Of a DNA stretch of 64,000 nucleotides, positions 451 through 2,046 are shown piece after piece. This DNA comes from a virus (taxonomy: Duplodnaviria; Heunggongvirae; Uroviricota; Caudoviricetes), in the IMG/VR virus record IMGVR_UViG_2684623127_000006. One strand, given 5' to 3'. The translations under genes and the position numbers were made by a program. Position 1 is the first letter of the stretch, and each line of letters begins with the position of its first letter. Below the pieces are notes generated by a model. That model made no database searches. It was given only the letters and a program-made list of their open reading frames with translations, and was not told the DNA's origin.

Positions 451-882
451 TCACAGGTGATTCTCCAGACGAAGACCCAGAACACCGGCAATCTCTTCCA
501 GCACCTTGCGCTCTTCCGGCTCAATTTCGCCGTCTGCCTCCGCAATGGCCACCGCCACATCCAGCACATCTTCCGCTTCACGCGTATCGTGTTTCACATC
601 CTCAATCTCACGTAACGCCGCACGACGACCAGTTTTAAAGTTCGTATCCAGCTGACCGATAATGGTTGCGCTAATCGCATTAATTTCTGACGTAAACGCG
701 GACAGCGCAGGCTGATTACGCAGTACCTGTTCGATCTTCGCTTTCTCGGATGCCTCACATTCACCATCTGCACAGGCCACCAGGTATGCGGCGTTAATCA
801 CCACCTGTGCCAGATCGCGTTTTTCAAACTTTTTAATTTCCGTTGCCGCTCTGCGGGTTTTCTTTTTGAAGATTCCAAACAT
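451..882 (-). CDS. TerB-like (tellurite-resistance TerB family) protein
   Basis: 144-aa ORF starting MFGIFKKK; C-terminal ADGEIEPEERKVLEEIAGVLGL resembles TerB family; lies downstream of phage tRNAs where stx sits in Stx phages. Confidence 0.55.
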   Translation of the reverse strand: MFGIFKKKTRRAATEIKKFEKRDLAQVVINAAYLVACADGECEASEKAKIEQVLRNQPALSAFTSEINAISATIIGQLDTNFKTGRRAALREIEDVKHDTREAEDVLDVAVAIAEADGEIEPEERKVLEEIAGVLGLRLENHL

Positions 883-1051
883 CGTGACGTTCCTTTGGGT
901 GGGTGAGCCAACGCCCGGGAGCGATCTGCCCACAGAGAAAGTCACACTGACCACTCCGTAAGCTCACCCCCGAAAGGCTCTGTGGTTGGTATGCGCCGGG
1001 CGTGGCGCAGATACAAAAAAGGCCCGCCGAAGCGAGCCTGGAAAATAAGTG

Positions 1052-1128
1052 TGGCGCGTTGTAGTGGAGTCGAACCACTGACCGATTGCTTAGAAGGCAA
1101 TTGCTCTGTCCGGCTGAGCTAACAACGC
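1052..1128 (-). tRNA. tRNA-Arg (anticodon UCU), phage-encoded argO-like
   Basis: 77-nt cloverleaf by manual folding: acceptor GCGTTGT/ACAACGC, anticodon loop CTTCTAA, T-loop TTCGACT, 3-prime CCA encoded. Confidence 0.75.
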
Positions 1129-1141
1129 AGAATACCGATAA

Positions 1142-1221
1142 TGGACCGCCATCGGGGACCCGGCCCCGCACCAACAACCCTGTTATGGTGTCGTCTGCTC
1201 TTCCTGATAAGCTAATGGCGG
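1142..1221 (-). tRNA. degenerate tRNA-like element (probable tRNA pseudogene replacing the Arg-UCG tRNA of prophage 2)
   Basis: Acceptor-stem ends CCGCCAT/ATGGCGG and CCA conserved with 49064-49140, but internal arms diverged; 6-nt T-loop without TTCGA consensus, no clean anticodon arm. Confidence 0.3.
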
Positions 1222-1228
1222 TTTGTGA

Positions 1229-1304
1229 TGGTGGCCCTTGCTGGATTTGAACCAGCGACCTGGCGATTATGAGTCGCTCGCTCTCACCACTGAGCTAAAG
1301 GGCC
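1229..1304 (-). tRNA. tRNA with CAU anticodon, probably tRNA-Ile2 (ileZ-like) rather than Met
   Basis: 76-nt cloverleaf: acceptor GGCCCTT/AAGGGCC, anticodon loop CTCATAA, T-loop TTCAAAT, CCA encoded; C4/C5 in acceptor stem as in Ile2. Confidence 0.75.
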
Positions 1305-1332
1305 GAGCCAAAAAATAATAATCAGATGAAAA

Positions 1333-2046
1333 TCAATAATCAAGCCCTTGCCTGGATACATATCTGTCTGGCGGGAAGCCATAATAGCGGTGAAATACAG
1401 AAATAAAGTAGGACCGGCTTGAATAACCACATTTTTCTGCTACAGCCTGTCCATATCCATACCGGGAACATAACATATTTACAGCAACACGCATCCGCTC
1501 TTCCAGCAACAAGCGACTGAACATGCCCCCTTCATTTTTCAGTTTTGTCTTTAACAAACTCTCACTCATATGCAACTGTAGAGCAATCGCACCAAGCGTC
1601 CAGCTTGCTGATATATCTGTCTGAATTATCGCCCTGACTTTGGCACTTATGCTGGATAAACATCCACTTAAAAACAATGACATCCGTTCATCTGTTTCAA
1701 ACAGAGACAGGCAGGCCATCATAAGAAACATATCCGTGACCTCTCCGGAAAATCCCTGGCTGGTAATTAAAGCCGCAGCCAACGCAGGATTGTTGGGTTC
1801 CAGCAACAGGTAAAGCGGAATGTCAGTCAGACGAGTCCTCGTCAGCTTATGCTGACTTTCCAGATATTGACTTACGACGGATTCGCTTATATCGACAATT
1901 TTAACTTTGCCATAATGCATAAGGAAAAGCTCCCTGATGCATTTGGTGGCCAGAACGACTGAGCCTGGCTTAAGTGACAACGTATCCTTTTCAAGAAAAA
2001 TATTAATTGGGGAGCAAACCATGATAACTGAACAGACAACAGCCAT
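1333..2046 (-). CDS. AraC-family transcriptional regulator (prophage moron)
   Basis: 237-aa ORF; C-terminal AraC-type HTH (…AVAEKCGYSSRSYFISVFHRYYGFPP); inserted between Q-like gene and tRNAs, absent from prophage 2. Confidence 0.7.
   Translation of the reverse strand: MAVVCSVIMVCSPINIFLEKDTLSLKPGSVVLATKCIRELFLMHYGKVKIVDISESVVSQYLESQHKLTRTRLTDIPLYLLLEPNNPALAAALITSQGFSGEVTDMFLMMACLSLFETDERMSLFLSGCLSSISAKVRAIIQTDISASWTLGAIALQLHMSESLLKTKLKNEGGMFSRLLLEERMRVAVNMLCSRYGYGQAVAEKCGYSSRSYFISVFHRYYGFPPDRYVSRQGLDY

Follow-up and report, generated by a model that had tools for sequence, protein, structure and literature searches.

A tRNA-like, apparently non-decoding unit in the argN slot of an Escherichia coli O157:H7 prophage

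We analyzed the middle position of a small prophage tRNA gene cluster in a 64,000-nt stretch of viral DNA (Caudoviricetes; IMG/VR record IMGVR_UViG_2684623127_000006), hereafter the window, which is from Escherichia coli O157:H7 and includes two such clusters, one in prophage 1 (P1) and one in prophage 2 (P2). In P2, the slot between the ileZ and argO tRNA genes is occupied by argN, a canonical tRNA-Arg(UCG), and in P1 it is occupied by an 80-nt unit at positions 1142-1221, referred to here as the middle unit or O157 unit. Judged by sequence and predicted structure, this unit is a non-decoding tRNA-like gene on the same tRNA body as argN, and comparison across genomes indicates an allele in its own right, old and very common, as opposed to a scrambled argN private to P1. 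We favor, with some reservation, the view that it is a co-transcribed, non-decoding, slowly decaying passenger, i.e., a hitch-hiking dead end, of a very successful prophage module. The unit and its parts are as follows:

1142-1221, minus strand: 80-nt tRNA-like unit, non-decoding, that occupies the argN slot and has its 5' end at 1221; predicted cloverleaf fold and top match of the family model described below.
1215-1221, minus strand: acceptor 5' strand CCGCCAU, C1-G72 type, same as in argN (alignments and fold).
1197-1212, minus strand: D arm GCUU-AUCAGGAA-GAGC, 4-bp stem and 8-nt loop with GG (G18 G19), kept.
1173-1195, minus strand: middle ("anticodon") arm, with an ACGAC/GUUGU stem closing the 11-nt insert-bearing loop ACCAUAACAGG.
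1153-1168, minus strand: T-like hairpin CGGGG-CCGGGU-CCCCG, 5-bp T stem kept; site of a G-tract length polymorphism.
1142-1152, minus strand: acceptor 3' strand AUGGCGG, discriminator U (U73), and encoded CCA (1144-1142).

The minimum-free-energy fold of the middle unit is a four-way cloverleaf (-30 kcal/mol). The 7-bp acceptor stem, the discriminator base, the CCA, and the D arm with G18 G19 are all as in a canonical elongator tRNA, and the only non-canonical parts are the anticodon loop and the T-loop. Neither the fold nor the alignments revealed a 7-nt anticodon loop, U33, or an anticodon, so the unit cannot be an Arg-decoding tRNA; the middle arm has an alternative fold of 8 bp with a bulge and a 6-nt loop. 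An intron remnant in the anticodon loop was considered and rejected, since no bacterial group I intron is nearly as short as 11 nt. In the T arm, the 6-nt CCGGGU replaces the 7-nt loop UUCGAGU, and with it the U54 U55 C56 and A58 of a canonical T-loop. In combining tRNA homology with the loss of features needed for function, the unit resembles a tRNA pseudogene.

The original prediction, made from the sequence of the window alone, was that no canonical tRNA lies at 1142-1221. The annotation tools agree: ARAGORN made no tRNA call there, the Rfam tRNA model RF00005 gave no match even at E≤10, and PGAP left the identical sequence in strain TR01 unannotated. The same prediction held that only the acceptor stem and CCA survive, which underestimates the unit, as the D arm and the 5-bp T stem are retained too. 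Its picture of D, anticodon, and T arms replaced by sequence that does not fold as a tRNA is right for the anticodon loop and the T-loop, which are non-canonical, and wrong for the D arm and T stem, which are kept within a cloverleaf fold.

The flanking genes of the P1 cluster and all three genes of the P2 cluster make up the five tRNAs that ARAGORN called in the window, every one on the minus strand:

1229-1304, minus strand: P1 tRNA-Ile2(CAU), ileZ type, intact (ARAGORN anticodon cat; Rfam 72.5 bits; PGAP tRNA-Ile).
1052-1128, minus strand: P1 tRNA-Arg(UCU), argO type, intact (ARAGORN tct; Rfam 67.3 bits).
49148-49223, minus strand: P2 tRNA-Ile2(CAU), ileZ type (ARAGORN cat; Rfam).
49064-49140, minus strand: P2 argN, canonical tRNA-Arg(UCG) (ARAGORN tcg; Rfam 44.4 bits).
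48974-49050, minus strand: P2 argO, tRNA-Arg(UCU) (ARAGORN tct; Rfam).

The Rfam tRNA model passes all three P2 genes (72.5, 44.4 [argN], and 62.4 bits), and together with ARAGORN it bears out the predicted order Ile2(CAU)-Arg(UCG)-Arg(UCU), including the tRNA at 49064-49140. Pfam places Phage_antiter_Q upstream of this cluster, as had been proposed, and the expected conservation of the outer two tRNAs in P1 is likewise found by ARAGORN and Rfam. In the P1/P2 alignment, ileZ, both spacers, argO, and the terminator are near-identical, and divergence is confined to the core of the middle unit, whose first ~19 nt and last ~27 nt are near-identical as well. The spacers of the P1 cluster are very short (7 nt and 13 nt), and the whole cluster is 100% identical in strain TR01, where the tRNAscan-SE-based annotation by PGAP lists tRNA-Ile and tRNA-Arg and no other tRNA. 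The compensatory T-stem change noted earlier between the argO copies is also real: the pair is G-C at 1078/1064 in P1 and C-G at 49000/48986 in P2. The P2 argO has in addition a U-C mismatch at acceptor pair 6:67 (U at 49045; G-C in P1) and a D-loop that differs from that of P1 argO. The D stem of the P2 argN includes a C-A mismatch (A at 49116), which Rfam flags as a non-pair; the neighbors of this argN score 62-72 bits. This allele occurs at ≥99% identity in 334 genome records, and in the argN allele most frequent elsewhere the D stem is paired. Based on the mismatch and the low Rfam score, the "intact" P2 cluster may carry a weakened argN.

The middle unit belongs to a wider family. We scanned viral contigs and species-representative genomes for sequence patterns, using in turn the D arm, the T arm together with the acceptor stem, the D arm with just the T-loop, and, last, the downstream Thr and Gly tRNAs as anchors. 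Throughout, these scans recovered a single tRNA body, with acceptor stem CCGCCA(U/C)/(A/G)UGGCGG and an encoded CCA. The family D arm is GCU(C/U) A(U/G/A)C(A/G/U)GGAA GAGC, with an 8-nt loop, to which the O157 unit conforms, and the family T arm follows the pattern CG(G/A)GG-UUCGAG.-C..CG, with CGGGG UUCGAG(G/U/A) CCUCG as its canonical form. The O157 unit has the acceptor stem and CCA, the D arm, and the non-decodable middle hairpin that mark family members; in its T arm the stem is present and the loop is lost, which defines a T-loop-less sublineage. The body usually sits directly after a Met/Ile2(CAU) tRNA in enterobacterial phage arrays, and its anticodon loops in this slot are very varied:

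CUUCGAA: Arg(UCG), canonical argN.
CUUCUAA: Arg(UCU).
CCUUUAA: Lys(UUU) with C33.
CAUUUAA: Lys(UUU)-like with A33, on two different compensating stems.
CGUAAGC: Leu(UAA)-like with G33.
Loops of 5, 6, 10, and 11 nt: cannot decode.

Slot alleles with a Lys(UUU) anticodon, and with C33 or A33 where U33 is near-universal, are found in contigs L312, L324, and ~20 other viral contigs, in L250, and in L380/L388/L417; they may represent tRNA-Lys variants that evade nucleases. In some E. coli genomes, tRNA-Lys and tRNA-Ile are annotated in the cluster. Among the non-decoding members, the ACGAC/GUUGU middle stem is common to the O157 unit, a set of phage units termed group B, and a chromosomal unit between the genes yahL and yahM; the D arm of the O157 unit is also that of the yahL-yahM and group B units, save for a C-to-U substitution after which the position still pairs, as U-G. 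A CAGG core recurs in several non-decoding loops that sit on different stems (CCAGGA, CAGGAU, CCAGGU, and, in the O157 unit and that of the Stx2e phage phiP27, ..ACAGG), the carriers being the K-12 (yahL-yahM) unit, Citrobacter amalonaticus L262, L374/L321, and the phiP27 and O157 units. This common core is a hint that the loop is not arbitrary. CCAGG is a Dcm/EcoRII site in DNA.

With the acceptor stem left unconstrained, the search still recovered this same acceptor stem in all units whose loop is non-decoding, and in the independently anchored sample, pair 7:66 changed from U-A to C-G and, in one lineage, pair 3:70 changed from G-C to A-U. By minimum free energy alone, 22 of the 24 distinct members form the same cloverleaf, with middle hairpins made of at least four unrelated stem sequences. 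In a MAFFT alignment, 97.4% of cells pair, compared to 31-49% in slid controls, and the middle helix shows double-sided changes at two of its five pairs. The acceptor, D, and T stems hardly vary and were fixed by the first search patterns, which leaves their covariation without information. Taken singly, the middle hairpins showed no significant gain in stability over shuffled sequence, except that of Lelliottia. Conservation of group B relative to its flanking tRNAs is ascertainment-biased and was not used as evidence.

A covariance model (R1), built from 18 family members with phiP27 and the O157 lineage left out, gave 1142-1221 as its best match in the window, at 66.2 bits (E ~3e-15), a similarity well in excess of chance, with canonical argN at 54.2 bits and ordinary tRNAs in general at 42-54 bits. 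In the alignment of the middle unit to this model, the T-loop is the sole unaligned segment. Non-syntenic relatives, with no neighboring gene in common, occur in Pseudocitrobacter, Citrobacter, and Lelliottia, with the middle arm almost deleted in Citrobacter youngae; no recurring partner gene or synteny was found around the Citrobacter and Pseudocitrobacter chromosomal relatives. Permissive Rfam scans of both window loci, the yahL-yahM locus, and the phiP27-type locus matched only tRNA, for the flanking genes; weak matches to YrlA, STnc100, and isrK-like families were below threshold and fell on terminators or neighboring tRNAs. As far as the searchable literature and Rfam show, the family is undescribed.

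These comparisons also bear on whether the middle unit could be a genuine decoding tRNA of unusual structure that software has missed, which we consider highly improbable. Such a tRNA would explain the cloverleaf fold and the encoded CCA, and ARAGORN supplies an anticodon for some relatives: it forces Ser(gga) at yahL-yahM and Leu(taa) at L077, and calls the members with 6-nt loops, including those of group B, "tRNA-???" with two-base anticodons. However, the middle unit has no 7-nt anticodon loop, U33, or UUC T-loop, Rfam does not match it at E≤10, and loop length and sequence differ freely between relatives. Moreover, arginyl-tRNA synthetase (ArgRS) requires C35 and U36 or G36.

The O157 allele is widespread. 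The 80-nt unit has matches in 5,193 of 5,426 complete E. coli genomes, and the prophage copy is present at ≥90% identity in ~1,690 of the 5,426 (about 30%); canonical argN at ≥80% identity gives ~1,555 records, so the O157-type allele is at least as common. The sequence of the middle unit is 100% identical in hundreds of complete genomes, including other O157 genomes, in which it carries no annotation, and near-identical copies are found in phage mEp460 and several vB_EcoS phages. This refutes a private mutation or assembly error and leaves practically no chance of random scrambling in one strain. The middle member that the original prediction called scrambled is instead a common allele with a family-homologous middle arm; the proposal that it is a decaying tRNA or a tRNA-derived element survives in so far as the unit is tRNA-derived and non-decoding and its lineage shows signs of relaxed constraint, and fails in treating it as a scrambled argN private to P1.

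The likely origin of this allele is seen in phiP27, which carries a 91%-identical copy. The phiP27-type alleles, which are ~91-93% identical to the O157 unit, have the same middle arm, body, and slot, but with a canonical T-loop, and their middle loop ACGAUAACAGG is one base apart from that of the O157 unit. In strains that bear Stx2e prophages (STEC379, RM9088), PGAP names the phiP27-type gene "tRNA-OTHER"; here the canonical T-loop is kept, so tRNAscan-SE/PGAP detects the gene and leaves the isotype blank. In the phiP27 record only ileZ and argO are annotated, and a comparative paper gives Stx2e phages just two tRNA genes (PMC7366253), which suggests that the middle unit was overlooked rather than described. 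Our searches of the literature on ileZ/argN/argO, a yahM tRNA-like gene, and prophage tRNA-like terms found no description of the unit. Phage P13374, presumably a close relative of phage TL-2011c, for which a tRNA-Pro is reported, has canonical Met-Arg-Arg tRNAs. Of the five positions that separate the commonest T-loop-less allele from the phiP27 type, four fall in the 17-nt T arm (p ~0.006), and this clustering suggests that loss of the T-loop was a localized event.

Beyond the prophage copies, the 80%-identity matches found in nearly all E. coli genomes sit between yahL and yahM. In E. coli ER2683 (record L004), the features are as follows:

L004:3001-3081, plus strand: 81-nt tRNA-like gene between yahL and yahM, unannotated.
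L004:2885-2912, ~88 nt upstream of that gene: sigma-70 promoter-like site TTGACA-16-CATAAT (11/12), conserved in all six lineages compared.

The yahL-yahM unit is 80% identical to the O157 unit over its full length and has the same acceptor stem, a canonical T arm, and the non-decoding loop AACCAGGAUU on the ACGAC/GUUGU stem. ARAGORN places its forced Ser(gga) at an abnormal position, and neither Rfam nor PGAP makes a call. The unit is 100% identical in six Escherichia lineages of five species, including E. coli, E. albertii, E. whittamii, E. ruysiae, and Escherichia sp. E1V33. Across the six lineages, the number of variable columns is 0 of 81 in the unit, 53 of 150 upstream, and 34 of 40 downstream (p ~3e-12), and around it yahL and yahM come and go, with yahN at just 84-86% nucleotide identity. 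Altogether, this pattern of strong purifying selection suggests that some family members behave like real, selected RNA genes. The annotated yahM (L004:3071-3316) has its start codon within the acceptor 3' strand of the tRNA-like gene. In E. whittamii, E. ruysiae, and Escherichia sp. E1V33, the yahM open reading frame (ORF) is missing or has other sequence in its place; thus, yahM may not be a real conserved gene.

The T-loop-less sublineage to which the O157 unit belongs looks different. Among 80 viral contigs of this lineage, which were selected through the middle unit itself, we counted ~20 variant events in the middle unit (14 alleles), compared to 7 in ileZ and 10 in argO. Those in the middle unit include three independent acceptor-breaking substitutions (in 2, 3, and 4 contigs; 9/80) and deleted columns, and the G-tract is lengthened by +1, +4, or +8 in 17 of the 80. 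Between strains, this G/C tract (1158-1163 region, minus strand; L005:2501-2588; L006:2501-2584) reads GGGGCC, GGGGGC, GGGGGGC, and up to 13 G, with tracts of 9-13 G in two E. coli genomes; such length polymorphism is consistent with replication slippage. The middle-loop alleles ACACG, ACACC, and ACGCG do not preserve one common pairing. Five further contigs (L027, L040, L061, L114, L013) have truncated or fused middle units, which are cut after GGTTGTTG or within the T region and continue into unrelated DNA, or run straight into argO; insertions or deletions may have had their breakpoints within the unit here. Altogether, constraint in the sublineage appears modestly relaxed, though not absent.

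The cluster context allows a scenario for the fate of the unit. The relevant sites are as follows:

1315-1343, minus strand: promoter-like site TTGATT-17-TATTAT (9/12, a consensus match only), ending ~10 nt before ileZ.
1020-1039, minus strand: intrinsic terminator-like hairpin with a T-run, just after argO.
49434-50129: Q (Pfam Phage_antiter_Q), upstream of the P2 cluster.

The P2 cluster has an equivalent promoter-like site ahead and an equivalent hairpin behind, and it lies additionally downstream of a tR'-like hairpin; upstream of the P1 cluster, Pfam identifies a DUF1133/Q-like protein and then an AraC-family gene. In the scenario that we favor, the ancestor would be a phiP27-type allele with a canonical T-loop, in which a localized change turned UUCGAGU into a G/C tract. 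The resulting middle unit is presumably co-transcribed with both functional flanking tRNAs, from the promoter-like site upstream of ileZ and by Q-dependent late transcription, with a stop at the terminator after argO, and the kept acceptor/T-stem helix may still let RNase P and 3' trimming free the neighboring tRNAs. Lacking a T-loop, the excised 80-nt RNA should not form an L-shaped elbow with the D-loop; with neither this elbow nor an anticodon, it would most likely be neither aminoacylated nor used on the ribosome, and it would be unstable. The data presented above show homology, structure, distribution, and polymorphism pattern, whereas transcription, processing, lack of charging, and instability are inferences; on this somewhat favored reading, the unit is a slowly decaying passenger.

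Several observations weigh against this reading. The clustering of changes in the T arm and the stable G/C hairpin loop are unlike random decay and could have been selected. The allele is ~10x commoner than its T-loop-bearing progenitor, so that a benefit is possible instead of hitch-hiking. The excess of polymorphism is just about two-fold, and every stem is intact in most copies. Finally, constraint is clear in the relatives that keep the T-loop, so that the family cannot be written off wholesale as junk.

If the unit is under selection, it may be for its helix and not for the RNA that is released. The helix with CCA would provide an RNase P site 7 nt after ileZ and a 3' end before argO, and the unit would be kept as processing punctuation. 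We regard this as possible but unlikely. Minihelices of an acceptor and a T stem can be RNase P substrates, and certain polycistronic tRNA transcripts of E. coli need no enzyme other than RNase P for their separation. Preservation is best in the acceptor stem, T stem, and CCA, with variation in the loops, and the 7- and 13-nt spacers lie within a compact promoter-to-terminator unit. On the other hand, the acceptor-breaking substitutions (9/80 contigs) and the five truncations are apparently tolerated, and in many phages ileZ is directly followed by other genes.

Comparison to known systems raises a further alternative. One close counterpart is argN of Stx and other lambdoid phages: slot, acceptor stem, discriminator U, CCA, T stem, and spacers are identical to those of the O157 unit, and the D arm is near-identical, but in argN the anticodon stem of 5 bp closes a CUUCGAA loop, the T-loop is UUCGAGU, and every tool calls the gene. 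The yahL-yahM gene differs from the O157 unit in being chromosomal and stand-alone, with a canonical T arm and a near-consensus promoter-like site. Other tRNA-derived folds without normal decoding include tRNA pseudogenes, tRNA-Other of Bacillus cereus, the tRNA-like domain of tmRNA, and YrlA. These resemble the O157 unit in their tRNA-derived fold, some with no anticodon arm or a replaced one, but they have no sequence relationship to it, and it has no Rfam match to such families. A further comparison is to nuclease-resistant phage tRNAs that replace host tRNAs cut by defense nucleases, e.g., T5 tRNA-Lys(UUU) against PARIS AriB, T5 tRNA-Tyr against retron PtuAB, and tRNA-Thr(UGU) of T-even phages and the lambda relative phage 21 against P2 Old, with resistance mapping to the anticodon arm (PMC10264068, PMC12445682, PMC12409363). 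Like the O157 unit, these rescue tRNAs are phage-encoded, lie in tRNA arrays, and change mostly in the anticodon arm on a conserved body. However, they keep the anticodon and still decode, whereas the O157 unit cannot replace a host tRNA; without an anticodon, the non-decoding members cannot be rescue tRNAs, and they could be arms-race dead ends or decoys. The arrays found here (Met/Ile2, X, Thr[UGU], Gly; or Ile2, X, Arg, where X is the variable slot) and the non-U33 Lys-like loops in X would, by analogy, fit the view of phage tRNAs as counter-measures.

It is conceivable that the unit is a functional non-decoding tRNA mimic, acting as a decoy or competitor for a tRNA-binding protein such as a tRNA-targeting nuclease of the host or a rival prophage, with altered loops that allow binding without cleavage or translational use. 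We find this doubtful for the O157 unit. The slot after the Met/Ile2 tRNA combines one conserved body with a hypervariable anticodon loop, including the C33, A33, and G33 loops, and in this resembles the nuclease-evading phage tRNAs (PMC10264068, PMC12445682); competitive inhibition of AriB by viral tRNAs has been explicitly raised (PMC12409363), and the array neighbors Thr(UGU) and Lys(UUU) match known nuclease targets. The strong conservation of the T-loop-bearing relatives and the great abundance of the O157 allele also speak for a function. But the O157 lineage has no T-loop and so probably lacks the L-shape that tRNA-binding proteins recognize, it includes stem-breaking variants and slippage, and no partner gene recurs beside the chromosomal members of the family.

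A few features of the surroundings are recorded here. The tRNA/TerB/esterase region is otherwise near-identical between P1 and P2, which have different upstream modules: an AraC-family helix-turn-helix gene (1333-2046, minus strand) lies directly upstream of the P1 cluster, and P2 has Q, the promoter-like site, and the tR'-like hairpin. The gap between Q and the P2 cluster (49341-49425, minus strand) contains a strong terminator hairpin (49347-49370) and sub-threshold Rfam matches to isrK and isrJ, and possibly gives a short pR'-tR' transcript. Between argO and the TerB-family gene, a homopolymer reads, on the plus strand, C5 at 960-975 and C9-10 at 48883-48896, which shifts the predicted start of the TerB ORF (167 vs. 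153 aa). The mechanical ORFs over the middle unit, at 833-1177 (minus strand) and 1086-1250 (plus strand), pass through tRNA genes.

For O157:H7, these results mean that the P1 prophage supplies Ile2 and Arg(UCU) tRNAs and not Arg(UCG). Annotation pipelines are correct to skip the middle unit, and the practical point is small; the O157 unit itself is a modestly interesting tRNA-derived relic. Still, the argN slot is neither empty nor randomly broken, and holds a tRNA-shaped, anticodon-less gene in about 30% of complete E. coli genomes. More broadly, the anticodon-less units on the argN scaffold might be an unrecognized class of functional tRNA mimics that do not decode and that occur in both Enterobacteriaceae and the temperate phages of these bacteria, a proposal that we put forward tentatively and think unlikely as it stands. 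The yahL-yahM gene would be its host member, and the phage copies would be array members from a nuclease arms race, serving as uncleavable decoys or competitors or as ligands of another tRNA-binding factor, with the T-loop-less O157 allele as either a further specialized form or a dead branch. The hypervariable anticodon loop on one scaffold fits the view of phage tRNAs as counter-measures to tRNA-cleaving defenses and raises the idea of tRNA decoys, and an invariant relative with a conserved promoter-like site sits unannotated in E. coli K-12-type chromosomes and the Escherichia core genome.

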